From NCBI GenBank assembly GCA_964490645.1, contig CAZBCL010000001.1:194334-258333 (forward strand): a stretch of 64,000 nucleotides of DNA, given 5' to 3'. This document shows, piece after piece, positions 18,076 to 58,099 of the stretch (position 1 is the stretch's first letter; each line of letters opens with the position of its first letter). Origin of the DNA: an uncultured Spirochaetia bacterium (lineage in GTDB: Bacteria; Spirochaetota; JAHITG01; CAZBCL01). Made by a program: the position numbers and the translations under genes. The notes under the pieces were generated by a model. The model saw only the letters and a program-made list of their open reading frames with translations, made no database searches and was not told where the DNA came from.

Positions 18076-18078
18076 TAA

Positions 18079-19383: not shown

Positions 19384-19400
19384 ATCTGTTTTACCACCTG

Positions 19401-20111: not shown

Positions 20112-20199
20112 GCAATTATACCTTCATTATTTTATAGTATCCATCAGACACCTGCAGTGTCATGTATTCACAACAGATATCTGTGCCGCTGCTTTTAAC

Positions 20200-22074
20200 C
20201 TATCTGTATTTATGGTTATTTTCCAGTAAATAATACGTCATAAATAATTTCTTTTCATCACCCTTGCCCTTCAGCCAATCAAGTATATCCGCTGTATCAA
20301 CTGAATACTGCCACGTTTTCTCTTCCCGCAGAATGTGCCATGATGGCGGCGGTTGCCACGTATCAGGAATAGTGTTTTTATACCCGCCAAACCATGGTAA
20401 CGGGGGATTGGATATCGGATTTTTTACGCCGCGACTGGTCGCAATAACAAGCCAGTTTGTTTCGTCATTTTTCTTTTCTTCAAGAAAGGCATCCGCTTGT
20501 GCCATCTGATATGGATAATATGCCGCATCAGGACGTTTATTCGCTTCAGCGGTTATCCATGACCAGCGTACATGATTGAGATTAATCATTGCAAATTGAG
20601 CATCTGCCTGTTCAGAAAATATTGTACGTGCCGCACGCGCTAACGATATTTCCGGATCAGGTTTTATTATTGGAAAGACAATCCCATACATGAGTGTCGG
20701 GAGCATGATATAAGTTATGCCAATAGCAAGAAGTGTTTCGTATGCTTTTTTCTTCCGTAATTGTACAAATGCAATTGTGATCGGAATAGGAATAATAAGA
20801 AATACGATAAGCAATGGGGTTATGGAAATATTCCATGGAATAAGTGCACGTCCTGCAGCTGAAAGGATAACTGCAATTATCAGCCCGGCAAACAAACCGC
20901 CCGCGGCAGCTCCCCATACTCCAACAGCAAGAATTGATGACCATATCTTTTGAGTAAAAACACGAGCCGAATGAAGTTTTTCCAGTGCTGCTGCCAGAGC
21001 GAGACTGAAAACAAATGTTAAATAAACCAGATAATTCGGTTTGTTACTAATAAGATATACCGTAAAAAGCATGACGAATCCAAAAAACACACTGTATAGA
21101 GTAAAAAGATTTCGTGTATCAGATAGATATTGTTTTTTTATTTTGCGCGAAAAAAGAATAATGAGTGCCGGTACTGACCAAGGGAAACAATAGCGGAGGA
21201 ACACCATCGGATACCACCATATATGATGCAATAATGTTTCATACGTCGCCCGTAAGCGACCGCTTTCCTCATGTGTAAGCCACCCCAGTAATGGGTCACG
21301 ATACGGGGTTGTCAGTAAAACAAGGTACCAGCCCAGCATTAACAGCACCATACTTAAAAAACCGGGAATACTGATTAAGCGAAGTAAATGTTTCCAACGG
21401 TTTTTACCTTTCGTGAACAGTGCAAATAACGGAAATACACCGACAGCATATAATGGGCCGACCGGACCTTTTAATGCACCACTAATGCCCAGTGATATCC
21501 AGCTTAATAATACAATAGTACGTTGATGCTTTTCTTTCTTTATCATACCAAGATACACTTCAAGAAATCCGTAAAACCCGGCACTCATAAATAAATTGTT
21601 TGCACTGTCAATCATTGCAACACGACTGTATTCAAATGTCAGAAACATGCCGGCATATATAAGCGCAGCAAGTTCACCAACACGATCACGATTATACAGG
21701 CGTTTTCCTGCAATCCAGAGTAATACCATTATCCCCAGCATGGATAATAAAGACGGCAGTCGCGCAACCCATATACGCACCCCAAGCAGTTTATAAAACG
21801 ACGCCACTATCCAATACCAGAGAATCGGTTTTTGGAAACGTTCCCGTTCAGCATAAAACGGCGGATGTACGGTGTCTTTTAAATATTGCGCAACAAGAAA
21901 ATCACCGGTGTCAAGCATACGCATCGGCGCATAAATATAAAAGGTTTCATCGCCCTGATATGATACCGGATTATCAATAACAAAACTAAAAAGAATCGTC
22001 GTTACGATAAGAAGAATAAGCAGCCGGACCGCAGAAGCATCATTGGCGGATAACCGTAATTGTTTCATTGCCAA
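20200..22074 (-). CDS. ArnT-like GT-C family glycosyltransferase (GT83), polytopic membrane protein.
   Basis: YQGDETFYIYAPMRM resembles the ArnT/PMT DE-x-x-Y motif. About 12 TM helices. 624 aa. Lies 12 bp downstream of metG. Confidence 0.75.
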   Translation of the reverse strand: MAMKQLRLSANDASAVRLLILLIVTTILFSFVIDNPVSYQGDETFYIYAPMRMLDTGDFLVAQYLKDTVHPPFYAERERFQKPILWYWIVASFYKLLGVRIWVARLPSLLSMLGIMVLLWIAGKRLYNRDRVGELAALIYAGMFLTFEYSRVAMIDSANNLFMSAGFYGFLEVYLGMIKKEKHQRTIVLLSWISLGISGALKGPVGPLYAVGVFPLFALFTKGKNRWKHLLRLISIPGFLSMVLLMLGWYLVLLTTPYRDPLLGWLTHEESGRLRATYETLLHHIWWYPMVFLRYCFPWSVPALIILFSRKIKKQYLSDTRNLFTLYSVFFGFVMLFTVYLISNKPNYLVYLTFVFSLALAAALEKLHSARVFTQKIWSSILAVGVWGAAAGGLFAGLIIAVILSAAGRALIPWNISITPLLIVFLIIPIPITIAFVQLRKKKAYETLLAIGITYIMLPTLMYGIVFPIIKPDPEISLARAARTIFSEQADAQFAMINLNHVRWSWITAEANKRPDAAYYPYQMAQADAFLEEKKNDETNWLVIATSRGVKNPISNPPLPWFGGYKNTIPDTWQPPPSWHILREEKTWQYSVDTADILDWLKGKGDEKKLFMTYYLLENNHKYR

Positions 22075-31784: not shown

Positions 31785-32113
31785 TTAATTCACGGCGAGT
31801 TTAACTATCCGATACGATTTCATATGAAGCAGGTGAAAATTCGGAATCATGTATATCAACACTCTTCATAAAAAAGATTAATAAATTCTATACTATTTAC
31901 ATTTTATGGCACATATCCCCCGATCTATTATTTAAAATCCTGTTATTATTGCATTGTTATACAGTTTGTTTTGTAGTTGTATTAATATGTTCCAACGATA
32001 ATATAATTGATATACAATACATTTCTTCGCCCCATTTACTATCAGATATACTATTCTGCTGCACTATGAGACTGCCATGAATAATAATTAATTACGTTGT
32101 TTTTATGATTATC
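31785..32113. repeat. Direct repeat copy A (329 bp), 328/329 identical to copy B.
   Basis: Aligned by eye base for base with 33897..34225. Single G/A difference at 32079 vs 34191. Confidence 0.9.
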
Positions 32114-33737
32114 TGTTACTTTTTTCTTTTTTTACAACCACTAAATGCGTATAGTTTGAATCAATAGTATATTTATACTTTTCTTTTAATTGAAACGCGT
32201 CCAGTACTTTTGTTTGAAGCAGCGCCAATTCATCCTTATAAACAATAAAATAATCAGGATCATTCCGTAGAATCGGCTCTATTGTCGGATTTTGAGAAAA
32301 GGAAACCGTGCTATAATTTTCAAAATATTTTAATAAGTACATATTTACACATAAAGTGTTCTTTTTATCAATTTGATTAATAATCTTTTCCACATCTACT
32401 GATATTTCTTTAACTTTCTGATCAGTATGTAATGTTAAAAACCGCCAACACCTACCAATAGGACTGCCGATAATGGCTGTTACTAATAATACTATTACTA
32501 TCCCTGTAAGGATATATAATACAGTTTTATTGTTTTTCGTTGTGCTTTTTTGTATCGTATGCGTATCATTACTTTCATGTGCGGTCTTCCGTGCATTGCA
32601 AAGCAAACAATATTTTCCGGAAATAATACTGCTTGCAATTACTTCTAATCGATGCAAACCAACAACAAACGCCAAAAATGCAAAACTATATATTTGTGTA
32701 AAATGCCAGCTGCATTCTGTCAAAAACGGACAATTTTGCATTAATACTAACTTCGGCAATTGCAGTAATAAAATTTCCGGACATAAAAGACTTATATATA
32801 AAAATGATTTCGTATTGATTAAAATCTTTTTAAGTATAGATATATTTATTATGAGCCATGGATGCATTAACAAATACACACCAACCTTAAAAACGTTATC
32901 CCCGTATTCCCCGTTTTTTGAAACCAGCGCCATATTATACGTCATGCTATGTGCGATTGAATATGAATAGTGCGAATAATGCTTTATTAATAGTGTTGCA
33001 CCAATAAAGTATACTCCACTTATAAGTAATGTAATCAAAGCCGTTTTTCTCATCTCTTTTTTAAGGAAAAGAAAAAACGCAAACAGTATCATATAGACAG
33101 CCATTTCTTCTTTAATCAAAAGAATTGCCGCTAAGCATATATAATATGCAAATTTATTATTTTTTATAATAATAAAATAAAACGCCCATATAATTGCCGG
33201 CAAAAACAGCATATCAGGATGAAAACCGTACACACTATCATTGAACAATCGTATATGATTCGGGATAATCAAGTATAATAATGCAACAAGAAATGGAAGA
33301 AGCCGAAATGTATTGGTATTATCTTTCGGACGTATATCTAACGACGTGATAGTTGTGTCAACTATTGCATAAACTGGAAATAGTGCCGAAACATACGCCA
33401 ATGTCCATAGCACTAAAAGGGCAATTGCCGATTTAAATAACGCAACAACCGGAAGAAAAAGAAGTAATAGTAAATATGCGTGTATCCCAAGCTGAAAACC
33501 ATATATGTTTTCATAAAAAAAATGTCCATGCAATGAGTTATTTAATACTTGATAATATAAAAACAAATCAGAACAATATTTCAAATTATTGAAATGCCAC
33601 AGCTTATAAAATAAAAAGAAAACAAATGCGACACCAAAAAGTATCAATAAACTAAAATGAAAACTTTTCGCGGCAGCTGCTTCATTAACAGCAAGCGCAT
33701 CTGATGACGGAAGTTGTGATTGTACGTTTCTCTTCAT
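32109..33737 (-). CDS. Polytopic membrane protein of unknown function (possible GT-C-fold or DUF2079-like), 542 aa.
   Basis: At least 12 hydrophobic helices. Rich in F/L/Y/K. The stop codon lies inside repeat copy A. Confidence 0.5.
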   Translation of the reverse strand: MKRNVQSQLPSSDALAVNEAAAAKSFHFSLLILFGVAFVFFLFYKLWHFNNLKYCSDLFLYYQVLNNSLHGHFFYENIYGFQLGIHAYLLLLLFLPVVALFKSAIALLVLWTLAYVSALFPVYAIVDTTITSLDIRPKDNTNTFRLLPFLVALLYLIIPNHIRLFNDSVYGFHPDMLFLPAIIWAFYFIIIKNNKFAYYICLAAILLIKEEMAVYMILFAFFLFLKKEMRKTALITLLISGVYFIGATLLIKHYSHYSYSIAHSMTYNMALVSKNGEYGDNVFKVGVYLLMHPWLIINISILKKILINTKSFLYISLLCPEILLLQLPKLVLMQNCPFLTECSWHFTQIYSFAFLAFVVGLHRLEVIASSIISGKYCLLCNARKTAHESNDTHTIQKSTTKNNKTVLYILTGIVIVLLVTAIIGSPIGRCWRFLTLHTDQKVKEISVDVEKIINQIDKKNTLCVNMYLLKYFENYSTVSFSQNPTIEPILRNDPDYFIVYKDELALLQTKVLDAFQLKEKYKYTIDSNYTHLVVVKKEKSNR

Positions 33738-33896
33738 TAATTTATGCTAGTATTTTGATATTAAGAAGTCAAGAATTATAAACTCAACTATATTACTGAA
33801 ATAATAATATCAAAATATACCGATATGATACTATTCTGCACACCGTAAAATAACAAATATTTGAAACTATATAAATCATACATCACTGCTGAATAT

Positions 33897-34225
33897 TTAA
33901 TTCACGGCGAGTTTAACTATCCGATACGATTTCATATGAAGCAGGTGAAAATTCGGAATCATGTATATCAACACTCTTCATAAAAAAGATTAATAAATTC
34001 TATACTATTTACATTTTATGGCACATATCCCCCGATCTATTATTTAAAATCCTGTTATTATTGCATTGTTATACAGTTTGTTTTGTAGTTGTATTAATAT
34101 GTTCCAACGATAATATAATTGATATACAATACATTTCTTCGCCCCATTTACTATCAGATATACTATTCTGCTGCACTATGAGACTGCCATAAATAATAAT
34201 TAATTACGTTGTTTTTATGATTATC
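33897..34225. repeat. Direct repeat copy B (329 bp).
   Basis: See copy A. The two copies are offset by exactly 2112 bp. Confidence 0.9.
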
Positions 34226-38991: not shown

Positions 38992-41742
38992 ATGCCACAA
39001 AGTTTTGAACCCACTTCACGCCCGCAGAAAAGCGGTTTTGTGAAACGTATCATTATTATCAGTATTATCCTTGTAGTGCTTTTATTCGGATTGTATAGCT
39101 ACATGAAAATTGTTGCATTGAAGGCACCAACCTTTATCGGATCAGATGCAATGATAGTCGCTGAAGCAGACAATCTGCTCAACCTGCTTGAAAATCTTGA
39201 AGCAAGCGACACCGTTAATCTGCTTAAAGATGATAGAGAATATCGCAGTTTGTATGCAATGCTGATTGAATTACAATCTTCGTTTGTCCAGCAAAATAAA
39301 AGTTTCCTTCGCTTACTGAATACACCGGTGCATTTAGTTGTACCAACACATGATGAGCCGCTGCTTATTCTCGATATGGGCATGAAAAGTCTGCTTTTTG
39401 GAGCAGGGCAAAATATTCTGCCATTATTATTCAGCAATAATGAACAATTCAGTGTGAATACCTACGAAGCAAATGGCGCAAAATTACTTGATCTGACCAT
39501 TAAGAAAAACAACAGTGTTGTGCATTTTCACGCTAAAAAAAATATTCTGCTGATTTCTCTTTCCCGTAATTCAATTTTACAGGCATTGGAAGCATATCAA
39601 TCCGGTGTTCATTGGAATAATAATGAAAATTTCCAACAAGTTCGTGCTAATGTTGCCGGCAGCACATCATTGCGCATTTACTATAACGCCGCATATATAT
39701 TAAATATTATTCAAGACAACTCCCCCGCTGAAACCGCCATTGATGCATTATCATTTCTTAATATAGCCGGCATTGCCGTTAATCTGAAAAAAGATTCAAT
39801 TACACTTGATGGTTTTAATTCAACCGGACTCTCCAATAGTGCCGTCAACCGCATTTTTAATTCTCAGCCGCGCACCATTAAAGTCCCTGAAATTTTACCT
39901 GAAGACATTGAAACACTTGCAGTATTTACATTCGACCATTTTGAAGATGTTTATGAAAGTGTAAAAGAATTATTCTGCAATGACCCGAGCATTGAACGGC
40001 AATTTAAAAAGGGTGAACGCAATCTCCGCCGATTGCTGAAAGAGCCATTGGATACATCAATATTTTCATGGCTGGGAAATGAAATCGCACTTGCACAGCT
40101 TCCCGGCAAGAGCAATGCTGTTATTATTATTCATACCGGAAATCCCGGGCGCGCACAAAACTTTCTTAATGACTTTGCACAACGCGGATGGATTAGCGAC
40201 AGTAATGTACCACGCTATCGCAATCAATATGATATTAAAAAAATCAACCTGCCGTTTGCACTTAATCTCATTGCTTCGGTATTTATTCCCAATCTTGAAT
40301 TGCCGTATTTTTCAATTATTGATGATTTTCTTTTAATATCGATGGACTATACTGTATTACAGAAAATAATGGATGCGGCGCTCACTGATGCAGTATTATC
40401 ATTATCTGATGAGTATAAAACCATTGCATTAAACATTGACCGGCAGGCAAATGTCTTTTGTTACTGGAAAAATTTAAATCGTATCGTTTCCTTACCAACT
40501 CGGCACGGCATTCTTCCCTCGCTCATTCGGTCATATCCGGCAGGAATGATGAGCATAAAATTCATCAATAGCGGTATGAAAGAAAAAGTATATCTTATAC
40601 GAAATATACGAACCACTCCTGAACCGGCTGCAGGCTGGCCAATCACCTTAAACGGCAATGCTGCCGGTGAAGCACGTATTGCTGATATTGACGGTAAAGG
40701 GCTTGATGACATTATTGTCGCTGCACAAAATGGAAAAGTATATGTACTGGACTATTACGGCAATAATGTACTCGGATGGCCGATAAAAACAGACGGGAAA
40801 ATAACCACACCGCCGGCAATCGGAAATGTTGATAATTCTGCAGAGCTTGAAATCGGCGTCGTTACTGAAAATGGTATTGTTTCGTTATATTCTAAAAACG
40901 GCACTATGATGGACGGATGGCCGAAAAATATTGAAGAGACGGTTGATACTCGTTTATGTTTTGCCGATATAACCGGCGATCGGAAAGATGATATTATTGT
41001 CGGAACAACTCGCGGCAATGTATATGCATGGACGGCAGACGGCACACCGGTGCAGGGATTTCCTGTCGCCCTTCCCGGACTGGAAGGTGTCGGTCGTTCA
41101 ATAGTGCCGGTCAATATAAAATCCGGTGCTGCAAATGAATTGCTGGTTCCTACTATTACATGGAATGGACATATTTACGCACTTACCGGTACGGGGACAT
41201 TACTGAACAATTGGCCAAAAGAAACAAAAACCGCCAATAAAACTGTCCCGATAATCACGCCTATGAATCCCGGCAACCAATCAGTTATATTATTTTTAAC
41301 CGGAAACGGGACACTGTATGCATGGAATGTTAATGGATCAACCATACTTTCCAATATTACGATAACGTCACGCATAACAGTAAATCCGGCAGCAGCTGAT
41401 ATCAACAACGACGGAATAACCGATATTGTTACGCTTAATGATGCCGGTCTTATTAAAATAAGCGCTCCGAACGGGACAACAATAAAACAATGGCAAGCCG
41501 GTCCCCCGTCACGTAATTCGCAATTATTGATAACTGATATTAATGATGACGGAAAATCTGAAATTATTTATGCATTCCCGAACGGCATCGTACGAGTTTG
41601 GAATAATGAAGGCGTTGAGCTTTCGGCATTACAAATGAACGGATCATTTACACCGAGTATACATGATTTTGATCATGATCATTCACGTGAAGCCGTAACG
41701 GTTAATCGGAACGGAACGGTTTGTGTTTATCAACTTCCATAA
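38992..41742 (+). CDS. Membrane-anchored large protein with C-terminal FG-GAP/VCBS-like beta-propeller repeats.
   Basis: N-terminal TM (IIIISIILVVLLFGLY). About 500-aa unknown region. At least 7 repeats of D-x-[DN]-x-DG-x-x-D-[IL] (DIDGKGLDDIIV, DITGDRKDDIIV, DINNDGITDIV, DINDDGKSEII). Confidence 0.65.
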   Translation: MPQSFEPTSRPQKSGFVKRIIIISIILVVLLFGLYSYMKIVALKAPTFIGSDAMIVAEADNLLNLLENLEASDTVNLLKDDREYRSLYAMLIELQSSFVQQNKSFLRLLNTPVHLVVPTHDEPLLILDMGMKSLLFGAGQNILPLLFSNNEQFSVNTYEANGAKLLDLTIKKNNSVVHFHAKKNILLISLSRNSILQALEAYQSGVHWNNNENFQQVRANVAGSTSLRIYYNAAYILNIIQDNSPAETAIDALSFLNIAGIAVNLKKDSITLDGFNSTGLSNSAVNRIFNSQPRTIKVPEILPEDIETLAVFTFDHFEDVYESVKELFCNDPSIERQFKKGERNLRRLLKEPLDTSIFSWLGNEIALAQLPGKSNAVIIIHTGNPGRAQNFLNDFAQRGWISDSNVPRYRNQYDIKKINLPFALNLIASVFIPNLELPYFSIIDDFLLISMDYTVLQKIMDAALTDAVLSLSDEYKTIALNIDRQANVFCYWKNLNRIVSLPTRHGILPSLIRSYPAGMMSIKFINSGMKEKVYLIRNIRTTPEPAAGWPITLNGNAAGEARIADIDGKGLDDIIVAAQNGKVYVLDYYGNNVLGWPIKTDGKITTPPAIGNVDNSAELEIGVVTENGIVSLYSKNGTMMDGWPKNIEETVDTRLCFADITGDRKDDIIVGTTRGNVYAWTADGTPVQGFPVALPGLEGVGRSIVPVNIKSGAANELLVPTITWNGHIYALTGTGTLLNNWPKETKTANKTVPIITPMNPGNQSVILFLTGNGTLYAWNVNGSTILSNITITSRITVNPAAADINNDGITDIVTLNDAGLIKISAPNGTTIKQWQAGPPSRNSQLLITDINDDGKSEIIYAFPNGIVRVWNNEGVELSALQMNGSFTPSIHDFDHDHSREAVTVNRNGTVCVYQLP

Positions 41743-46636: not shown

Positions 46637-46683
46637 AGGTGTTCACAATGTGAAGCGTGCATCGACACGATACAAGGAAATCT

Positions 46684-47154
46684 ATGCAAGTTGAATATGT
46701 AAATCCGTTTATTATCGGCGCTATTGAGGTATTTGAACAAATTGCGTCAATAGAATTAAAAAAGCAATCAATCGCCTTAAAAGATGATTCACGACCAACA
46801 CATGAAATTGCTATTGTTATCGGTGTGTCCGGATATTTGGAAGGGCAAGTTATTTATAGTTTTAAGGAACATACCGCCGAGCGCATTGTTTCTTCAATGA
46901 TGCCGAATAGTCCTCCTGAAAAACAAAAAGAATATATGGAAAGCGCTATTGGTTCACTCGCAAATATGATAACCGGTCGGGCAACAATCCTGCTCGCAGG
47001 AAAACAACAAGTTCTTCGCATCACTCCGCCGGCAATTATTATCGGTGAAAACATGGATTATAAATTCGTTACCAATAAAACACTTTCGGTATCATTCACT
47101 TCACGCTTTGGAACAACTGAAATCAATGTCGCCTTAACGGTAGCCGGCAAATAA
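46684..47154 (+). CDS. cheX: Chemotaxis CheY-P phosphatase CheX.
   Basis: MQVEYVNPFIIGAIEVFEQ... about 156 aa. CheC/CheX/FliY-family fold pattern. AAGGAA ribosome-binding site. Confidence 0.8.
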   Translation: MQVEYVNPFIIGAIEVFEQIASIELKKQSIALKDDSRPTHEIAIVIGVSGYLEGQVIYSFKEHTAERIVSSMMPNSPPEKQKEYMESAIGSLANMITGRATILLAGKQQVLRITPPAIIIGENMDYKFVTNKTLSVSFTSRFGTTEINVALTVAGK

Positions 47155-47170
47155 AAAGTGGTTGAACAAT

Positions 47171-47530
47171 ATGGCAAAAGTTCTGTTAGCAGATGATTTA
47201 GCATTTATCAAAATGGTTCAGCAGGAAGTACTCAAAGATAATGGATTTGAAGTTGTCGGCGATGCTGTTGACGGTGTTGATTGTGTTGAAAAATATAAAA
47301 AACTGCGCCCTGATATTGTCATTATGGATATTACCATGCCGCGTATGGATGGATTGAATGCATTACGGGCAATTTTAAGTCAGGATAAAAAAGCACGTGT
47401 TGTAATATGCTCAGCATTAGGACAGCAAAAATTGATTATTGAAGCCATAAAAGCAGGGGCAAAGGATTTTATTGTCAAACCCTTCCAGCCTGAACGACTT
47501 CTTTCCGCATTACATAAAGCCATGAAATGA
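47171..47530 (+). CDS. cheY: Chemotaxis response regulator CheY (single REC domain).
   Basis: KVLLADD, DIVIMDITMPRMDG, ICSALGQ, K in DFIVKPF: canonical receiver-domain residues. Confidence 0.88.
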   Translation: MAKVLLADDLAFIKMVQQEVLKDNGFEVVGDAVDGVDCVEKYKKLRPDIVIMDITMPRMDGLNALRAILSQDKKARVVICSALGQQKLIIEAIKAGAKDFIVKPFQPERLLSALHKAMK

Positions 47531-48969
47531 AACGTATCGTCTGGATAATTCTGATAACAGCACTATTTTACTCAACGTCTTCGGCATTCCTCTTTTTTAA
47601 AAAGAAACCTCCCCGCTCGGAAAAAATTACCGTGAGTGTTCATGACAAACCATACCGCCTTATAGCGATACTTCCTTTTACAAACCGTACTGGAAAAAGT
47701 GAGTTTGATTATCTGAGTCTAAGCATACCCCATTACCTGCATTCCGCACTCACCTCAATAACAAACGTTATCGTATCAACGAATGATATTGCTGTTGCAC
47801 CGGCATTACTAACCAATACCAATGTTATACTTTCTTATGACAAAGACTTTAATCGCACGGTGAAGGTTCTTTCAATGAAAAGCGTTGTATCACTCTTAAC
47901 GCAATGCACTGCATGCCATTCGTTAGCGGCAACCGCAACAAACCTTGCGGTTGACTATGTGGTATACGGATCATTTACTGGTTCATCTCGGGATAATCTC
48001 TCATTTAAAACATATTTGTATTTCGTACAGCGCCAAAGCAATGCCGGTCCGTTTGAATTATCGTATCACGGCGATGCACTGAATGCGCCTCCAAAAATAG
48101 CAGCCCAAATAAAAGCAGCGTTTTATCATACACCCGGCGGCGCATTAACCGTTACTTCCGATCCGCCGGATGCCCTCATTTATGCGAATGGACGATACTG
48201 CAATCGCACACCTTTCACCATAGAATATTTGCCGGTTGGCACATATGTTATAACAGTCCGAAAAGACGGATGGCACACACAATCAAATACTATTTGCATG
48301 ACAACAAATGGATATGCCTTAACAAACATTACACTACTGAATGCGCGAACTGCTGCACCAATTGCTATCACGACTTCTCCGACGAATGCATTAATTATGT
48401 TTGATGCACGCCCGATCGGAAAAACACCATTGATCGTTTCAAACCTTGTTCCCGGGCGTTATCGAATACGCTTGAGTGCTCCCGGATATATTAATGAGTA
48501 TCATCGAATACGTATTAATAAAACCGCGAACCGCCCGCTTATGATAACGATGCAGCCGAAAACTCGTACAAATGAAATCGCACGTATTTATCACCAATCA
48601 CGTTGTCTTATGTGGACATTCACGGGGACAGGACTTGCACTGACTATCGGAGCGGTAATTGCTATCGGAGAAGTTGAACGAAATCAGGAATTGCCGGCAA
48701 CGATTGCATATGATAATCCGAACAAGGAGACGCTCATTAATGAATACTATCGAAAAGAAACACTGTGGCGATCTGCAGCAATTGCCTGCGGTTCACTTTC
48801 ATTAGTATCATATGTTACTGCAATTATTTTTATGATAAAAGCAGCGAATTATTCAAGTTATGAATACGGCATGATATTAAATACGCCATCAGATCGTATA
48901 GTGCATCCACTCCCTGCGATAATCAGCCCGCACTACTGTGCCGTACAGCTGATACAAAAACAATTTTAA
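47527..48969 (+). CDS. Secreted PEGA-domain protein with a C-terminal TM anchor.
   Basis: Two PEGA-like blocks (LTVTSDPPDALIYANGRYCNRTPFTIEYLPVGTYVITVRKDGW; IAITTSPTNALIMFDARPIGKTPLIVSNLVPGRYRIRLSAPGY). Signal peptide. ATGA overlap with the cheY stop. Confidence 0.65.
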   Translation: MKRIVWIILITALFYSTSSAFLFFKKKPPRSEKITVSVHDKPYRLIAILPFTNRTGKSEFDYLSLSIPHYLHSALTSITNVIVSTNDIAVAPALLTNTNVILSYDKDFNRTVKVLSMKSVVSLLTQCTACHSLAATATNLAVDYVVYGSFTGSSRDNLSFKTYLYFVQRQSNAGPFELSYHGDALNAPPKIAAQIKAAFYHTPGGALTVTSDPPDALIYANGRYCNRTPFTIEYLPVGTYVITVRKDGWHTQSNTICMTTNGYALTNITLLNARTAAPIAITTSPTNALIMFDARPIGKTPLIVSNLVPGRYRIRLSAPGYINEYHRIRINKTANRPLMITMQPKTRTNEIARIYHQSRCLMWTFTGTGLALTIGAVIAIGEVERNQELPATIAYDNPNKETLINEYYRKETLWRSAAIACGSLSLVSYVTAIIFMIKAANYSSYEYGMILNTPSDRIVHPLPAIISPHYCAVQLIQKQF

Positions 48970-50459: not shown

Positions 50460-53400
50460 TTATAATCGTTTCAATAATTGATATGCCTGCACATTTGCCG
50501 GATCATATCGCAATGCTTGAACACATCGGCGCTGCGCCGTTTTTGCATTGCCCGCAGTCAGATCCAATTCCGCTAATCGAAGCAATGCATCAACATTATG
50601 TGGATCACGCTGCAGTGTTTTTTGATAATACTCGCGTGCTTGTATTTTATCACCGCTGCGTAAATAAATATCACCAAGCTGCAGATCAAAATGAAACCCT
50701 TCATCAGTTTCACGTGATAATGCTTCAAGTTTCGATATTGCAACATCAGGCATTCCAACTTGATAGTATACCATTGCTTCTATTTCACGAATATTAAAAT
50801 TATTACATCGCCGATTATATTCATTTGCCAATATAGTATACTTCTGACATAACGGACCGTATTTTTCCGTATCTTTCGGAATTAAACCGAAATAATGCCG
50901 CGCAAGTTTAATATTTATATTTTTATATGTCGGATCAATATTCGCAATATCTTTGTAGCGTTGTATCATTTCATTAGTATTTCCAAGTCGGCGCATCATT
51001 TGCGCATCAAAATAATACCGATCAATAACAACTTGTGATGCAGAATAATTCGCCGGATTAACTTCTATGAGTTCAGAGCAGAGATTATACATTTTAGTTT
51101 CAAGATGATCATATTCTTTTTGACGCTCATCCGGCGCCATCCGATCAATTGAATTCATTGTATCTAAAATGCCGGTCAACTCAATTAATCTGCCTTCATG
51201 TTCCCACACCCGATCAATTGAACGCAGCAGCCGCATATACTTTTCATCACCGCTTGACGGAGAAATATAATTAAGCACTCTACTGCGATGTTCAAATAAA
51301 TCCCGTAATTCATCAGCTGTTGCTCGTTTATACAAACTCAACGGCATTTGATATGCTGCCCGAATACCGGTATTTTTAATAATCGCCCCTTCTCCTGCCC
51401 ATGCACGCAGATCGGCATCAGCACAGATAAATGTCGAGATAATTGATTCAACGGAATTGAGTTTGTTCAATGCAAGCACGGTCTGTAATGTCATTGTATC
51501 AAGCCGCCGCTGTACTTGCGGAAGATCAAACTCAATCGGAATATCTGCTCCCATAAGAATATATTCCGAACCGTAATGTGCCTGAAACAACGCAGCATGA
51601 TCAAATACCGAAATGAATGTTTGAATAAAAGATTTTATATCAGTATTGTTTATATCATACATCGGCAGCAGAACACATACATATCCATCATCCGACATGC
51701 GTTCATGTATTCCTGATAATACAGAATATGATAATTCTGCACCGGTAGTCAGAGCATTTATTTCATACCGCATAATAATACTGTCATATTTTTCACCAAG
51801 ATAATGTATAGCAGATGGAGTTCCATAGCGGATTTTTAACCGCTCATCGCTCCATACTTTGTATGAGAAGAGGTCGAAATACTCCTTTTGTAATGCGACA
51901 TCATGATATGACGGTGAAAGATAGGTTATTGTTTTTAATTTATACAATCCTGCAGATCCCAAAGTAATTCCGAGACCACTGCCGGCAACCAGCACTGAGG
52001 TCGGTTGTTTATGCAGCAACAACGGTATATGAGCCAATAACTGCTGCATTACAACATCATTGCGTGATGCAAGGCAGGCATATCCGTTTTCCAATAGTAC
52101 TGCATTATTTTCTGACGCTTCATCAATAATCGTAAACGCCGTTCCAAATTCTTCAGCCGTTGTTTCAAAGCGCCGGTTCAGTAATGCCGCACGATGAAGA
52201 AGTGTATCACTCGCCCATGGTCGCTGCTCAAGCAATTCCCCCGCCTGCGACTGCAGTTCAGGAGCTTTATTAAATGCACCAATTGCCATAAGACGTATAT
52301 CCGACGGAATAATGATGATTAAACAAAGGAAAACAATCAGTATTACAAATGGGAAAATCGCTTTTTGAATACGAATGACCGTAGTGCGTGTGAATGCATT
52401 GAGAATTGCCGCTATGCCCAGTATCCCCACTGCACTTATGAACGAATAATATGAACCGATTGCCGCAACACCACATAATGCAATACCACAGACACCGAAT
52501 ACTGTTCCAAGTAAAAACATTCGTGCATTTTTTCTCCGTACTGTCATTGCGTCGCTGATAAAATCCCGCAATAAATGCGGCATACAAAATAATTGCCCAA
52601 GCATTAATCCCCATACAAATGCGGGAATAATAATAATCAGCGCATAGCGATACGTCAGCCATACATAAAAAAACGGCATCATCAGATTGCGCGACGTCAT
52701 TGCTGCTGCCTGATTCATCTCAGAAAATAACTGATTTAGATACATAACCGAATGTACCGGAATACCACGAAGCAGCAATAATGATACAAACACGGTCAGT
52801 ATACTTATCAGTACCACTGCTGATTCTATGTGTGCAGTAGGATTATTCTTTTTAAATGCAATTGAACGTACCAGCCACCCGACACCGACTCCTGTTATAA
52901 AGAATACCAGTATGCGAAGTGTAATTCCCCATGAAGTCCCACCGACAAGATTGCCTAGATACCAGACCAGTAAAGCCGTTCCGGTCATTCCAACACCGAT
53001 ACAAAATGCGGATACCTGCTTGAATATACGTATTATTTGCTGCTGACGCAGTGCATGTATTTCCGGTGATTGACTGGTATCAGATACATGCATATGCTGT
53101 ACACGAGCATCCGAGGCTGATGTATGCTCACCAGCCGGTAATGTCCGTACTCCAAGTGCGCGTCCGCGATAGAGCCATAACAAACCAACACCCGGCAGAA
53201 TACTAACCCCGCATAAAACTGCAATAATAGAAATATCCATATGCGGTAATACCATGAAGCCAACAAGTGCAAAACCAAATGCAGCACTGAGAATAAATAC
53301 CCCTGCAGCTGAAAGCACATGCTGCTCTTTGCGTTTAAAACTAACAATACATTCCCTTATTGCTTGAAATCCAAAGTGTACGGCAAATACCGGAACCGCA

Positions 53401-53771
53401 AAAAAAACAAATGCGCCGATACTCTGAGCAATAATTAACCCCGATAGTGTAGCATTCAGCACATTAAACAACGGAGCATACAACCATGCAACAGCGCGAA
53501 TAATAACCGGTGTTAAAACCGTAAAAATAATAAATACTATCAATGCAAAGAGTGCACTATTTCTCGGACCGTGAAAAACCCGATCCCGCAGGCTCGTCAT
53601 TGAAGAATGTAAACTCATTATACTTAATAGAACAAGTGAACAACTGCCTATTAATACCGGCATTATCGTTCCGTCGCCCCCCAACATTAATGCAAGTGAA
53701 CGAAGCCAAACGGGCAGTATTCCGCCGCAGCCGATACCAAAAAATATTATTGCAAAATAAAATATATTCAT
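50460..53771 (-). CDS. Giant fusion protein: polytopic membrane domain + spermidine-synthase-like (PABS-fold) domain + C-terminal TPR repeats (1103 aa).
   Basis: About 14 TM helices in the N-terminal half. Gly-rich Rossmann loop VLVAGSGLGITLGSAG. TPR repeats at the C-terminus. Its ATG overlaps the TAA of the upstream paralog by 1 nt. Confidence 0.7.
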   Translation of the reverse strand: MNIFYFAIIFFGIGCGGILPVWLRSLALMLGGDGTIMPVLIGSCSLVLLSIMSLHSSMTSLRDRVFHGPRNSALFALIVFIIFTVLTPVIIRAVAWLYAPLFNVLNATLSGLIIAQSIGAFVFFAVPVFAVHFGFQAIRECIVSFKRKEQHVLSAAGVFILSAAFGFALVGFMVLPHMDISIIAVLCGVSILPGVGLLWLYRGRALGVRTLPAGEHTSASDARVQHMHVSDTSQSPEIHALRQQQIIRIFKQVSAFCIGVGMTGTALLVWYLGNLVGGTSWGITLRILVFFITGVGVGWLVRSIAFKKNNPTAHIESAVVLISILTVFVSLLLLRGIPVHSVMYLNQLFSEMNQAAAMTSRNLMMPFFYVWLTYRYALIIIIPAFVWGLMLGQLFCMPHLLRDFISDAMTVRRKNARMFLLGTVFGVCGIALCGVAAIGSYYSFISAVGILGIAAILNAFTRTTVIRIQKAIFPFVILIVFLCLIIIIPSDIRLMAIGAFNKAPELQSQAGELLEQRPWASDTLLHRAALLNRRFETTAEEFGTAFTIIDEASENNAVLLENGYACLASRNDVVMQQLLAHIPLLLHKQPTSVLVAGSGLGITLGSAGLYKLKTITYLSPSYHDVALQKEYFDLFSYKVWSDERLKIRYGTPSAIHYLGEKYDSIIMRYEINALTTGAELSYSVLSGIHERMSDDGYVCVLLPMYDINNTDIKSFIQTFISVFDHAALFQAHYGSEYILMGADIPIEFDLPQVQRRLDTMTLQTVLALNKLNSVESIISTFICADADLRAWAGEGAIIKNTGIRAAYQMPLSLYKRATADELRDLFEHRSRVLNYISPSSGDEKYMRLLRSIDRVWEHEGRLIELTGILDTMNSIDRMAPDERQKEYDHLETKMYNLCSELIEVNPANYSASQVVIDRYYFDAQMMRRLGNTNEMIQRYKDIANIDPTYKNINIKLARHYFGLIPKDTEKYGPLCQKYTILANEYNRRCNNFNIREIEAMVYYQVGMPDVAISKLEALSRETDEGFHFDLQLGDIYLRSGDKIQAREYYQKTLQRDPHNVDALLRLAELDLTAGNAKTAQRRCVQALRYDPANVQAYQLLKRL

Positions 53772-56700
53772 TAATACCTCTGCATTAACGTACGCATTCC
53801 TTCAGCCGCTTCTGCATTATTAGGATCAATACGTAATGCTTTTTGAAAATATCGCCGAGCATTATCGCCGTTTCCTTCGGATAATGCAATGAAACCAAGA
53901 TACGCTAATGCATTCGGATGCCGCGGATTAAACTTCAGCACTGTCTGAAATGCCAGTGCCGCTTCTTTTCTATTTCCCGGTTCAATTTGCTCCATTAACA
54001 TATAATACCTGCCGAGAGCATAGTATCCCCGTGGATTTTCCGGATCATGGGCAACTATTGTACGATACTTTTCTCCTGCCTCAAAATAGTTGCCGGCATA
54101 AAATAATACATCAGCATACGCACCGATAATGTCATCTTCCGTCCAATTTCGATTAAATATAAGCGCTTTATCCAGCATGGTAAATGCCTTCGTATAATTT
54201 GTTCGACTAACATAATAATCTGCCAGCATTACCCAAATGCGTTTATATTCAGGATACAGTTTTGTTATCTTTTCCATATATTCACGGTAAACAGCATCCT
54301 GTTTATAATTCCGCTCAGCGTATTGCTGATAGTAACCTGCCATATATTTCAATGCTTCAGGATGATGCGGATTGTATTCAAGAATCTGCTGCATATTACT
54401 CATTGCTTTTACTGCAAGTAATGAACGATGCAGATGGGAATGCGTCTCCGGAAGCTGAACCGTATCAAGGTAGAGCATACGAGCTTTGTGTATCATATCC
54501 TGCATAAACGCCATACCAAGGTCAAGCCCTGTTGCCGAATAGTGATCAATATAATTGGTAACTGCAACAACATCGCTATATAAGGCACGCTGTTCTTCAA
54601 TAGATACTGTTGTATTCGGATGCCGTAAAAATCGACGTTGCGGCAAATACTGCCCGTCGCTATTTATCTGATAGTGAACCGTATCATGATCAAACACATC
54701 TTCGGGGTCATCAGTAAGAAATGTTGCAAGCAAATACTGCAGCGATACAATGTGCCGGCGTTCCAGATCAGAAAATAAAAATAGATCTGAAAGATTCTTT
54801 TCCGCACGATTATAATCACAGATTGGTTTTTTCTGTGCAGCAAGTATAATATAATCCGTTCCGGCAAGTATTTCAAAAACGAGAATATGTTTAAATTCAC
54901 GCCGCAGTGCGGCAACTGATGATACTAATGCTTCAACACCGCCATCGCGTATCATACAACGCTCAGCATATATTCCGTTCTTGGTCATTCGTCGTTTTAC
55001 AAGTTTATAAAACTCACCGGTCCGACAAACCCCGATATGTTCATCAGGTATGGCGGGAGTATTATTAACAATAATATCATAATGTTTCCTTGTACACTGC
55101 AAATGCATTCTGCCTGAAAGCGGCACCACGGAAACGGCATTTTGTTTATAAACATCGCCGTTCAACAGTTTCGTATACCGCTGATACGTATCGACATACC
55201 CGGGAAACAACGGAGCAACATCAATAGTCATTAACTCACGATATAAACTTGCGCTTGCCGCAGTAATACCAACACCGCCTTCCATAATAAACATACTCAC
55301 CGGACGATCGGCAAATATAATCGGCAAATGTGCAGCAAGAACATTTCCCCGACTGCTGATGCCGGTAGTAACATCATCAGTCCCATTCAGTATAAACTGT
55401 GTAGTATTATCAATTGAAATAAGCTGGGCAAATCCATCCGGGGTCAGTGCAGCAAAATCAACCTTATCAGCAAGAACATCCCATCCTGAATATCCCGAAT
55501 CAGGTGTCCGATATGCACTGCCGGATAATGCTGACAGCGGAAATGTTCCGCGTAGTACAACGGCAAAAACAATCGTGATAATAAAGCCGCTTAATAGCGC
55601 ATAATTAATACCCTGCAGTTTTTCATTAATACGACGAGCGACTGCAATGATATACACTATTGATAATCCTAATACCGCATACCATAGTATTCGAAGCATC
55701 TGCGCATGCATCAATACTCCGCTGAATACATATAAAGCGCCAATACCGATAAGAAGCACGAAAAGACTATTGTAATTAATACGAAGTGCCGACTTTTTTG
55801 CATCAGCATCGAATCGAATCAGTGCCGCATATAATGACAATCCGATACCGATTCCAATAAACGCCATCGTTTTTAATGCAATACTATAACTATGAATAAA
55901 ATAGCCTGCCGGTGTTTTATGAATATACTCCAGCTCATGTATACTAATACGCGGCAAACTTACCGCTGCTATCCAAACCCCGATACCAAGAAGGACTAAT
56001 CCCAATACTCCCGTTATAGAATGCCGACGCAGTATTTGTATATACTGTACAATAATTATGCCTGCAATAATTGCCGTCAGCAATGCTGCAATAAATGCTG
56101 ATCGTTCCAATAGTGTCGGGGCAAGAATAGATTTCAATAATGAACTAAAAACAACTATACTGATAAATCCCCAAAGAACACTTACCGAAGAAACGATACT
56201 ATACCATGACCATTCTGAAGATACCGTTTTTTGTATACTATTGGCAGTGTGATTTTTCAGTGTAGCTCGATATACCACTGTAAGGATAATACAGCCGATA
56301 CCAAGAACAATACGCATCGGCATTAAGCCGACATAGGTCAATAACCATCCGCTTGCCGCCTGACCAATAATTGAACCGACACCGAGAAAAATAACAATCC
56401 GTGTTGTATCGATACTCTCATGATTGGTATGACCGTGCAGCGGAATATGTATGAAAAGACGCATTACCATAAACAGCGGCAGTGTTACCAAACCAATACA
56501 GGAGAGCACCATCCAAATATACATAAACACCATTGTTCGTTCATATGGCTGATATGCATATGTACCAACAAACACGAATAAATATTTAAATAACGGCCAT
56601 AGTATAAGCAAAATAGCAGGTATATATAAACCGAATAATGCATTATATTGTTTCATTCCGACATGCACTGCTGTTCCGGTACGTTGATTTTTAAAATTAA

Positions 56701-56884
56701 TCAGTACTGATGCAGCAATACCGGATAAAATACAGATGATAACAAGAATACGAGGGAACGCATCAAAGCCAAATACAAATCCGGCAGATTGCTGAAGCGT
56801 GTTAATAAAAACAGCAAGCACTGCTCCGACTGTAATATATGGAAGAAAAGTAAAATGTTTATCAGTATGCATGTGTGTTTCCAT
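53771..56884 (-). CDS. Paralogous giant fusion protein: membrane domain + spermidine-synthase-like domain + TPR repeats (1037 aa).
   Basis: Same architecture as the neighbour. FIMEGGVGITAASAS Rossmann loop. C-terminal TPRs (AYLGFIALSEGNGDNARRYFQKALRIDPNNAEA). Confidence 0.7.
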   Translation of the reverse strand: METHMHTDKHFTFLPYITVGAVLAVFINTLQQSAGFVFGFDAFPRILVIICILSGIAASVLINFKNQRTGTAVHVGMKQYNALFGLYIPAILLILWPLFKYLFVFVGTYAYQPYERTMVFMYIWMVLSCIGLVTLPLFMVMRLFIHIPLHGHTNHESIDTTRIVIFLGVGSIIGQAASGWLLTYVGLMPMRIVLGIGCIILTVVYRATLKNHTANSIQKTVSSEWSWYSIVSSVSVLWGFISIVVFSSLLKSILAPTLLERSAFIAALLTAIIAGIIIVQYIQILRRHSITGVLGLVLLGIGVWIAAVSLPRISIHELEYIHKTPAGYFIHSYSIALKTMAFIGIGIGLSLYAALIRFDADAKKSALRINYNSLFVLLIGIGALYVFSGVLMHAQMLRILWYAVLGLSIVYIIAVARRINEKLQGINYALLSGFIITIVFAVVLRGTFPLSALSGSAYRTPDSGYSGWDVLADKVDFAALTPDGFAQLISIDNTTQFILNGTDDVTTGISSRGNVLAAHLPIIFADRPVSMFIMEGGVGITAASASLYRELMTIDVAPLFPGYVDTYQRYTKLLNGDVYKQNAVSVVPLSGRMHLQCTRKHYDIIVNNTPAIPDEHIGVCRTGEFYKLVKRRMTKNGIYAERCMIRDGGVEALVSSVAALRREFKHILVFEILAGTDYIILAAQKKPICDYNRAEKNLSDLFLFSDLERRHIVSLQYLLATFLTDDPEDVFDHDTVHYQINSDGQYLPQRRFLRHPNTTVSIEEQRALYSDVVAVTNYIDHYSATGLDLGMAFMQDMIHKARMLYLDTVQLPETHSHLHRSLLAVKAMSNMQQILEYNPHHPEALKYMAGYYQQYAERNYKQDAVYREYMEKITKLYPEYKRIWVMLADYYVSRTNYTKAFTMLDKALIFNRNWTEDDIIGAYADVLFYAGNYFEAGEKYRTIVAHDPENPRGYYALGRYYMLMEQIEPGNRKEAALAFQTVLKFNPRHPNALAYLGFIALSEGNGDNARRYFQKALRIDPNNAEAAEGMRTLMQRY

Positions 56885-57167
56885 GAGCCTATATTATAAT
56901 GACCATTTTAGTAAAGTCAAATCAAAAGGATAGGCAACACTATATTTTATAGAAAATAAAAAATAGTACTAAAGTATTTTACATGATTTTTATCTCCCGC
57001 GAAAATTATTTTAAAAAAAAATAATCCTGTGATTAAGAATTAATACGTTTCCGACGATACTATGATTAGCCGAAAGAATGCACTGTAAATTCGGAAAAGT
57101 TGTTTTTTCGTTTTTACAGCAGCCGCAGAGGCAAGGACGCTTCTGTGTAATTTCAAGGAGGAAGAAA

Positions 57168-58025
57168 ATGATTATTAATCACAATCTAAGCGCGATCTTT
57201 GCACATCGCACACTCAAATTCACGAACTGGGAAGTTAACAAAAGCATGGAAGCTCTCAGTTCGGGAATGCGCATTAACCGAGCCGGTGACGACGCATCCG
57301 GTCTTGCCGTTTCGGAAAAAATGCGTTCACAGATTCGCGGTCTTCGCCAGGCAGAACGCAATGCCGAAGACGGAATCAGTTTAATTCAGGTTTCTGAAGG
57401 ATATCTGCAGGAAAGCCAGGACATCCTTCAACGCATCCGCGAATTATCAATTCAGTCTTCAAACGGTGTTTACACCTCTGAAGACCGTATGCAGATTCAG
57501 GTTGAAGTCAGCCAATTGGTTGACGAAATCGATCGTATCGCATCACAAAGTGAATTCAACAGGATGACGCTCCTGACGGGTCGTTTCTCCGATCCGCGTG
57601 CCGGCGGTATTCCGCTTGCATCAATGTGGTTCCACATCGGTCCGAATAAGGACCAACGAGAACGTGTCTATGTTGGCACTATGTCAGCAAAAGGACTTTG
57701 GGTACGTCGGCAGGATGACAGCATTGTCTCTATCTCAACCCCGGAATTAGCAAACGCTACTATCGGTGTTGTCGATCGTGCACTGACCAAAGTTTCAAAA
57801 CAGCGGGCAGATCTAGGCGCTTACCAAAACCGTATGGAACATGCTTCACGCGGTTTAATGTCTGCGTACGAAAATATGCAGGCAGCTGAAAGCCGTATCC
57901 GTGACGTTGACATGGCTGAAGAAATGGTTAATTTTGTTACTCATCAAATTCTTGTTCAGAGCGGTACCGCTATGTTAGCACAAGCAAATCTAAAGCCGCA
58001 GACTGTTCTTCAGTTACTTGGCTAA
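57168..58025 (+). CDS. flaB: Flagellar filament core flagellin FlaB (286 aa). The listed ORF carries a 30-aa spurious N-terminal extension.
   Basis: [18 protein letters not shown]...[26 protein letters not shown]...C-terminal [31 protein letters not shown] ribosome-binding site 7 nt upstream. Confidence 0.95.
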
Positions 58026-58071
58026 AAGAGAAGACGTGTAAAAACACACTTCCTTCTTCTCAAACAATAAG

Positions 58072-58099
58072 AGCCGGCCTTTGTGGCCGGCTTTTTTTA
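58072..58099 (+). terminator. Rho-independent terminator of flaB.
   Basis: AGCCGGCC-TTTGT-GGCCGGCT followed by TTTTTTT. Confidence 0.8.

Follow-up and report, generated by a model that had tools for sequence, protein, structure and literature searches.

The locus raises the question of what two adjacent reverse-strand genes of more than 1000 codons each, here called A and B, do in an uncultured Spirochaetia bacterium, given that both join a membrane domain and TPR repeats to a spermidine-synthase-like domain. The window, i.e. the whole stretch of DNA that was analysed, comprises 64,000 nucleotides of contig CAZBCL010000001.1 and contains the following features:

53771..56884, reverse strand: gene A, 1037 aa (1033 aa from the alternative start Met5, as called in one source)
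55553..56851, reverse strand: A residues 12-444, 13 TM helices, forming an MFS fold (12 helices) plus one extra helix
54713..55462, reverse strand: A residues 475-724, spermidine-synthase fold with N-terminal beta domain and Rossmann domain, glycine loop EGGVGIT
54155..54646, reverse strand: A residues 747-910, helical linker of low model confidence with weak ARM/TPR-like matches
53777..54139, reverse strand: A residues 916-1036, about 3.5 TPR repeats modelled with high confidence
53777..53780, reverse strand: putative GAGG Shine-Dalgarno-like site, read from the sequence, within the end of gene A and 5 nt upstream of the ATG of B
53769..53773, reverse strand: TAATG stop/start overlap, in which the TAA of A and the ATG of B have base 53771 in common
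50460..53771, reverse strand: gene B, 1103 aa
52314..53765, reverse strand: B residues 3-486, 13 TM helices, forming an MFS fold plus one extra helix
51423..52175, reverse strand: B residues 533-783, spermidine-synthase fold, glycine loop GSGLGIT
50805..51362, reverse strand: B residues 804-989, helical linker, mostly of low model confidence
50466..50792, reverse strand: B residues 994-1102, about 3.5 TPR repeats modelled with high confidence
56893..56920, reverse strand: predicted sigma-70-like promoter TTGACT-16-TATAAT (11/12; consensus match only)
57168..58025, forward strand: FlaB-like flagellin, 285 aa, divergent neighbour of A, given as context only

The single-base overlap of the two genes described in an earlier note on this DNA was reproduced, and the pair combines it with an upstream ribosome-binding site and the lack of an intergenic terminator, as is typical of coupled genes. 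A weak terminator-like match (53726..53713) is located inside B; the terminator scan returned 11 such matches compared to 6.6 expected by chance. Rfam and tRNA scans of the whole window gave no matches. A and B probably share a transcript, and their translation is probably coupled through the TAATG overlap and the GAGG site of B; this coupling is proposed to provide roughly equal amounts of the two proteins. The predicted -10 element ends only 8 nt before the ATG of A, so that the mRNA of A may be leaderless or nearly so. Both frames are uninterrupted in DNA of 40% GC, and their composition resembles that of the surroundings. Since the A and B proteins are identical in two independent assemblies, a sequencing or assembly artefact is unlikely.

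The layout of three modules claimed for both genes (membrane domain, spermidine-synthase-like fold and TPR repeats) was confirmed by profile searches and AF2 models. The TPR repeats score above the Pfam thresholds (TPR_19, 56.5 bits for A and 42.7 bits for B; TPR_2, 54.9 and 31.4 bits) and are modelled with a pLDDT of >85. For both proteins, the models contain a spermidine-synthase fold, composed of an N-terminal beta domain and a Rossmann domain, and a 12-helix MFS fold. Their overall confidence is moderate (pLDDT 67 and 70), and they were computed from a shallow alignment of 27 family members, so that, for the membrane part, the fold matches depend on the family. Pfam MFS_1 did not match A or B at E<=0.01.

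MFS termini are cytoplasmic. A crude hydropathy and positive-inside count, in which lysines and arginines were summed on the two sides of the 13 helices, favours an N-in/C-out orientation (17 versus 8 for A, 24 versus 6 for B), and 13 TM/C-out is also the modal topology prediction in the family. Taken with the MFS fold, these counts suggest that the synthase-like and TPR parts of A and B face the periplasm. Each protein would be inserted into the inner membrane through its 12-helix domain and the 13th helix, the latter bringing the C-terminal modules to the periplasmic side.

Profile comparison places A and B, as strongly diverged members, in the uncharacterised NCBIfam family NF037959 ('fused MFS/spermidine synthase'). 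Against a profile built from 151 relatives, with A and B left out, their synthase-like domains align end-to-end over 224 positions with 132.0 bits (B) and 115.6 bits (A). An exhaustive HMMER profile search with a limit of E<=1e-10 recovered 2,609 representatives; proteins of 950-1150 aa with the same layout are numerous among them. The curated NF037959 model has a cut-off of 40 bits; A scores below it (26.4 bits) and B does not match at E<=0.01, whereas the relatives P0006, P0008, P0012, P0154 and P0155 reach 119-154 bits. For the membrane domain of B, comparison with the family gave a collinear match of 34.6 bits with high compositional bias, and for that of A no match was detected by HMM or hhalign; the models of both proteins have an MFS fold with the same 12+1 helix count. 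Word-indexed homologue searches, run with residues 1-811 of A and 1-878 of B, returned only self matches and three remote ones. In module order and length, A and B resemble the long form of NF037959 with C-terminal TPRs, which likewise consists of two 6-TM MFS-fold repeats, a 13th helix, a synthase fold, a helical linker and TPRs. They differ from the family in the loss of 58-72% of the conserved TM positions: A retains 28% of the family-conserved positions in the TM domain and 40% in the synthase domain, B 42% and 41%, compared to 61-100% in controls. Fisher tests gave no significant sign of complementary degeneration, in which A would retain what B has lost (TM domain, p 0.79; synthase domain, p 0.28). 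No paper on the bacterial family was found, in keeping with the earlier note, which calls these fusions poorly characterised.

The description of A and B as a duplicated pair was not upheld. Each synthase-like domain is closer to canonical members than to its partner, which appears only at BLAST ranks 146/169 and 157/166, and in a neighbour-joining tree A and B stand apart on the two longest branches. By these measures, they are not recent duplicates and a sister relationship is unsupported; since the distances are saturated, an old duplication may nevertheless underlie the pair. The pair was seen in one organism only. For the survey of other loci, an alignment of canonical members served as the query, the alignment of 17 sequences including A and B having no conserved stretch. 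None of the 80 other loci contained a directly adjacent family pair, relatives either occurring singly or lying 2.9 kb or more from one another, so that the tandem arrangement, whose distribution had been proposed for checking, did not recur. A constant gene partner of the family was likewise sought in 80 metagenome loci, where only weak recurrences were seen: a large adjacent TPR protein (10), a sigma-54 regulator (7), an FGE-sulfatase-like protein (6) and ABC ATPases (11).

Extreme divergence and the longest branches of the family could mean that A and B are decaying, functionless remnants. We consider this highly improbable: two frames of this length have stayed intact, the Shine-Dalgarno-like site and the stop/start overlap are preserved, the synthase and TPR modules are confidently folded in the models, and the same proteins occur in both assemblies.

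In the alignment, the distinctive feature of A and B is that three residues near-invariant in the family have been lost: Glu at beta2, Asp at beta4 and the Glu/Asp at the catalytic position. The beta2 position is E/D in 256/257 other members (99.6%) but P558 in A and S619 in B; the beta4 position is D in all 257 (100%) but S590 in A and T651 in B; and at the catalytic position 239/257 (93%) have E/D/Q, but A has N608 and B has R668. Both proteins thus have none of the three acids, and compared to the 257 others they are the only members in which at least two are lacking. Residue-level alignments to Plasmodium falciparum spermidine synthase and to thermospermine synthase agree with this result. 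On comparison with PABS proteins, which the earlier note had proposed for the catalytic residues, the ribose Glu, adenine Asp and catalytic Asp are all replaced. The replacement of the GGGDGG loop, which the earlier note had pointed out, is real, with Val (EGGVGIT) in A and Leu (GSGLGIT) in B at the position of the GGG(D/E)G acid, but it is not distinctive: an acid is found there in 0/257 family members, the residues present including S (176), T (25) and A (20).

These losses bear on the possibility that A and B are genuine polyamine aminopropyltransferases, as the JGI name 'spermidine synthase' for their relatives would imply. The fold matches, and there are weak matches to PF01564 (18.0 bits for A and 18.5 bits for B, cut-off 22.9) and PRK00811 (27.2 and 33.7 bits, cut-off 260). 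However, these cut-offs and that of TIGR00417 speE (19.7 and 26.2 bits, cut-off 249.6) are all missed, and identity to SpeE and to spermidine/thermospermine synthases is 11-19%. All the residues that characterise aminopropyltransferases are replaced: the glycine-loop acid for the amine of dcSAM, the Glu that contacts the ribose, the Asp that contacts the adenine and the catalytic Asp (D-x-x-D-P). In contrast to SpeE and other PF01564 proteins, A and B are membrane-anchored, and their synthase-like domains are predicted to be extracytoplasmic. The idea can practically be dismissed, and the doubt already voiced about polyamine synthesis was well founded.

A different catalytic role, based on a remodelled pocket that takes a different donor or substrate or holds SAM in a non-canonical manner, appears rather unlikely. 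The synthase domain still has its fold core and glycine loop (GxGxT), as well as several motifs of the family (H-x-P, Y-D-x-I-I, G696/G637, F723/F664), and both open reading frames are clearly maintained. Against such enzymes stand the independent loss of three acidic positions in both proteins, to different residues, and the loss of about 60% of the family-conserved positions of the domain. A related membrane-anchored enzyme, the fungal methyltransferase NHMT, is inactivated by the loss of a single equivalent Glu (E340A; PMC10349129).

In the explanation that we favour, at roughly even chances of being correct, A and B are NF037959-type proteins that have diverged strongly and lost catalytic activity; they are co-translated and form a periplasm-facing, heteromeric scaffold or receptor. 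The absence of the three acids from both proteins is proposed to preclude canonical binding of dcSAM or SAM and hence the formation of polyamines or methylated products; a pocket of this kind might nevertheless accommodate a different ligand or cofactor. Aminopropyltransferase folds oligomerise (textbook knowledge), and the synthase folds of A and B may pair in the same way, while the TPRs would hold periplasmic partner proteins. The most likely role of the pair would then be a non-catalytic one.

Oligomerisation would equally suit regulators of the prozyme type, with A and/or B pairing with an active canonical member encoded elsewhere and controlling its activity or localisation. Polyamine metabolism offers precedents in which a dead paralogue activates a live one (PMC5201418, PMC6221367). 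Such a role is unlikely here: a third family member is absent from the roughly 84 kb formed by the window and its two 10-kb flanks, and the tight coupling of A and B points to mutual partnering. The AdoMetDC prozyme of Trypanosoma brucei is such a case, a paralogue without catalytic activity that is kept because its partner requires it (PMC5201418). A and B share this concept with it, but fold and pathway step differ, and with both proteins dead there would be no activity left to regulate within the pair. Among the closest known systems are also the SpdS-like domain of human METTL13 and NHMT (AN4663), a methyltransferase of the spermidine-synthase family that acts on the N-terminal His of secreted LPMOs. 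NHMT is anchored by 7 TM helices and has no TPRs, whereas A and B have 13 TM helices and TPRs, and it retains the essential SAM-binding Glu (E340) that both lack.

The position of A divergent from flaB would be explained if A and B worked on or near the periplasmic flagella, in filament assembly or at the sheath or collar. The divergent arrangement, which the earlier note had stressed, is real at this locus but not conserved. The flagellin has its best match (77%) in a Spirochaetes MAG, and in 0/80 spirochaete flaB loci was a homologue of A or B found within 10 kb, the two closest loci having unrelated neighbours; conserved synteny is ruled out by this survey. A and B also have a predicted promoter separate from that of flaB. 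A link between the synthase fold and the flagellum exists in the Helicobacter pylori SpeE-FliM complex (PDB 5x0z), but there SpeE is soluble and binds the switch complex in the cytoplasm, whereas A and B are membrane proteins for which flagellar contact is conjectural. A flagellum-linked role is therefore quite unlikely.

More broadly, the NF037959 family might constitute an extracytoplasmic protein-modifying system, in which a periplasmic SAM-type methyltransferase acts on substrates chosen by the TPRs with cofactor supplied by the MFS domain, A and B being a doubly dead, obligate heteromeric receptor or scaffold that possibly serves the periplasmic flagella. We regard this composite picture as unlikely; if it is true, fungal NHMT would have a bacterial counterpart in this family. 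One testable idea contained in it is that canonical members may methylate proteins outside the cytoplasm, with cofactor delivered by their own MFS domain.

For annotation, neither A nor B should be named a polyamine biosynthesis gene. The label 'spermidine synthase' carried by thousands of bacterial proteins rests only on a fold located behind a membrane domain, and there are reasons to distrust it: no family member has the glycine-loop acid that dcSAM requires, the domain probably lies in the periplasm according to prediction, and A and B lack even the general cofactor-binding residues. As a naturally dead, apparently co-translated pair, A and B would offer a handle for separating the structural role of this fold, in pairing and binding, from catalysis.

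Two adjacent genes had been described at 50460-56884 in the earlier note, and two long minus-strand ORFs matched these coordinates exactly. The pair and its candidate promoter are as follows:

56884..53771, minus strand: gene A, long ORF, 1037 aa
53771..50460, minus strand: gene B, long ORF, 1103 aa
56893-56920, minus strand: sigma-70-like promoter, TTGACT-16-TATAAT, near-consensus match (11/12)

In one source, A starts at Met5, giving 1033 aa. Two assemblies made independently, ENA ERZ27262693 (a 330-kb contig) and Logan SRR8439058, carry identical proteins in the same gene order. At the junction, GAGGTATTAATGAAT, the stop codon TAA of A and the start codon ATG of B have base 53771 in common, as had been claimed, and B's start codon is preceded at 5 nt by a GAGG; judged from the sequence, the two genes are arranged like a classical translationally coupled pair. 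The -10 element of the candidate promoter ends 8 nt before A's ATG, upstream of which TAGG was found but no clear Shine-Dalgarno site, so that the A-B mRNA may be leaderless. In base composition, both genes resemble the remainder of the window (GC about 0.39-0.42), which gives no sign of recent transfer.

Hydropathy analysis yielded 13 membrane helices each for A and B. AlphaFold2 models, calculated from an input alignment of 27 rows of family members (A: pLDDT 66.9, pTM 0.66; B: pLDDT 70.4, pTM 0.67), comprised 13 long N-terminal helices, a beta-rich and a Rossmann domain (pLDDT about 85-95) and, C-terminally, a poorly defined helical linker followed by about 3.5 confident TPR repeats. PF01564 was matched with 18.0 and 18.5 bits by the two proteins, below the cut-off of 22.9, and the E-values for matches to PDB spermidine synthases were about 1e-3; the resemblance to synthases is thus weak at the sequence level, and the three-module layout proposed before (membrane, synthase fold, TPR), although correct, was made solid only by the fold search. 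Loop K+R counts favoured an N-in orientation (A, 17 vs 8; B, 24 vs 6), which with 13 helices places the C-terminal part outside, and 13 TM/C-out was the modal prediction in the family (107 relatives). The MFS fold has both termini in the cytoplasm; A and B carry one extra, very hydrophobic helix beyond it, an arrangement with which a C-out topology would agree. The family loop motif after TM2, GR..DR, occupies the position of MFS motif A. The synthase-like and TPR modules of both proteins are predicted to be periplasmic. The TM4-TM5 loop of A (residues 141-157, about 56414-56464, minus strand; RLFIHIPLHGHTNHES) resembles the family soluble-domain motif Q.L.AH.P.LLHP.P; it was the only hhalign match, a non-significant one (probability 0.5%), and the likeness is probably due to chance.

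Word-indexed homologue searches with A and B found almost nothing. With an A+B profile from which the TPRs had been removed, exhaustive searching by HMMER reached 7,076 representative clusters at E<=1e-3, of which 2,609 passed E<=1e-10, and only five non-self matches reached E<=1e-30; many matches were 950-1150 aa long and had a synthase-like domain from near residue 500, as in A and B. Relatives scored 119-154 bits on NCBIfam NF037959 ('fused MFS/spermidine synthase', cut-off 40), and their second TM repeat and synthase domain also aligned to PRK03612. On NF037959, A obtained only 26.4 bits and B gave no match. A synthase-domain profile of 151 relatives, built without A and B, aligned end-to-end with B (132 bits) and A (116 bits), so that by profile comparison the homology of this domain to the family is secure. 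The family TM profile matched B weakly but collinearly (34.6 bits) and A not at all. Because they fail the NF037959 cut-off and lack the acidic triad of the family, A and B were classed, by these comparisons, as a strongly divergent variant and not as an ordinary member. A literature search turned up no paper on this bacterial family, in line with the view that such fusions are poorly characterised. At one metagenomic locus (L084, 6285-12976), the canonical member P0155 overlaps the upstream rotamase-like gene by 4 nt and a PpiD/SurA-like rotamase gene comes after it, a periplasmic-chaperone context on one metagenome contig.

The family consensus reads NGK.DAS..D..Q.L.AH.P.LLHP.P..VLVIGLGSG.TLGS...VEISP...DPR..II.DGRNH...YDVIISEPSNPW. 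A and B were compared with 257 other domains (151 representatives, homologue-search matches and 83 ORFs from 80 metagenome loci), a set biased at the third triad position, since the pattern used to pick the 83 ORFs covers it. The GGG(D/E)G position was acidic in 0/257 members (S 176, T 25 and A 20 among those present), indicating that the family as a whole is not built for dcSAM; the loop replacement noted earlier is thus real in A and B, but family-wide and not specific to them. In class I methyltransferases and aminopropyltransferases, the triad residues bind the ribose and adenine of the cofactor and deprotonate the acceptor. The Glu after beta2 was E/D in 256/257 other members, the Asp after beta4 was D in 257/257, and the catalytic-base position, for which the 83 ORFs are biased, was E/D/Q in 239/257. 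The corresponding residues are P558, S590 and N608 in A and S619, T651 and R668 in B; compared with the 257 others, only A and B lacked at least two triad residues, and both lacked all three. The same equivalences came out of residue-level alignment with spermidine synthase from P. falciparum and thermospermine synthase from Medicago. In NHMT (AN4663), a membrane-anchored fungal relative, replacing the equivalent Glu alone (E340A) is enough to abolish activity (PMC10349129).

Both A and B are predicted to be catalytically dead. The pair descends from, and works like, the NF037959 family and differs from aminopropyltransferases in lacking all of their defining residues, which, together with the loss of the triad, upholds the earlier doubt about polyamine synthesis. 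True polyamine synthases are excluded by the sequence and decaying genes by the intact frames. A rival reading is that the active site has been remodelled for new chemistry. Of the columns with >=85% conservation in 15 relatives, A keeps 18/64 in the TM region and 23/58 in the synthase domain, B keeps 27/64 and 24/58, and control sequences keep 61-100%; by this measure, degeneration is global and extends beyond the active site. Which positions one protein has lost is statistically independent of the losses in the other.

The C-terminal 557 residues of A and B are 23% identical (E 1e-17). For the synthase domain, both have nearer relatives among the canonical members than in one another (paralogue rank 146/169 and 157/166), and an NJ tree of 251 domains did not pair them, while no terminal branches in it were longer than theirs (1.36 and 1.12; median 0.30). 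Of the paralogy assumed before, membership of the same family stands, but a recent duplication is not supported; on these data, A and B both belong to the family and have each undergone very fast divergence, and they may or may not go back to an old local duplication. Among 80 metagenomic loci with canonical members (56 with at least one flank of >=3 kb), adjacent or overlapping family genes were absent; two family genes occurred in only three, where they were separated by other genes and by no less than 2.9 kb. The intervening, unrelated genes encode a Kelch-like lipoprotein and a membrane/TPR protein at one locus (L131) and proteins with prepilin-type N-termini at another (L140). Three further relatives were single genes in unrelated contexts. 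A and B might also act like prozymes and regulate a live paralogue encoded in another part of the genome; no third family member was found within about 84 kb.

The divergent neighbour of A is a flagellin gene, and a CheX/CheY-like/PEGA cluster lies 1.5-4 kb beyond B:

57078-58025, plus strand: flaB, mechanical ORF, likely start ATG 57168; Flagellin_N match, AAGGAGG
46657-48969, plus strand: CheX - CheY-like receiver - PEGA-domain protein (480 aa) cluster of overlapping/abutting genes

Since the Flagellin_N match begins at residue 33 of the mechanical ORF and a strong AAGGAGG precedes ATG 57168, FlaB probably starts there and has 285 aa, leaving a 283-bp spacer to A. At about 57033-57060 there is a weak sigma-28-like element (TAAG-N15-GACGATAC), and a strong terminator hairpin follows flaB at 58069-58095. 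A role linked to the flagellum would fit this adjacency, but in the 80 spirochaete loci returned by a FlaB scan of species-representative genomes (best match 77% identical) an A/B homologue within 10 kb of flaB was found in none, and the two closest loci had unrelated neighbours. The adjacency is real here and a lead at most. Downstream of B lies GmhA, which has a promoter-like site of its own, and after it come a small unknown ORF, the PEGA protein, the CheY-like receiver and CheX; past flaB come the genes for an XhlA-like protein, an LMW phosphatase and acetate kinase. Large envelope/TPR proteins, A and B among them, abound in the window; the two PMT-type proteins and the 648-aa TPR protein in the following list of further features also belong to this group:

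861-2720, plus strand: PMT_2/PMT-type GT-C glycosyltransferase-like membrane protein
5002-6948: TPR protein, 648 aa
20200-22074, minus strand: PMT_2/PMT-type GT-C glycosyltransferase-like membrane protein
32001-34000: low-GC patch by composition, 0.30 vs about 0.40 elsewhere
32109-33737, minus strand: DUF2079 polytopic membrane protein gene, inside the low-GC patch
38992-41742, plus strand: 916-aa protein with DUF3352 and FG-GAP/beta-propeller repeats
L165 (same contig, about 7.5-11 kb past the window's right end), 17550-21218: giant gene, 3264-aa product with bacterial Ig-like (Big) domains

In the best-supported mechanism, one transcript would be made from the promoter at 56920-56893, with translation of B coupled to that of A. 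Both proteins would reside in the inner membrane, the synthase fold and the TPRs facing the periplasm, and neither would bind SAM or dcSAM canonically, given the residue loss. In aminopropyltransferases, synthase folds pair. In the weakest step of the scheme, those of A and B would do likewise, and the TPRs would recruit periplasmic partners, making the pair a non-catalytic scaffold or receptor. These conclusions rest on one organism and on predictions; what appears to be new is a translationally coupled pair with both partners predicted dead.

The modal predicted topology in NF037959 is 13 TM with a non-cytoplasmic 'spermidine synthase' domain, yet canonical members keep SAM-type binding residues, and we suspect that this domain is extracytoplasmic throughout the family. 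A periplasmic synthase-like domain would be surprising also for these apparently cofactor-competent members and would raise the question of how the cofactor gets to it; the fused MFS domain may be the supplier.
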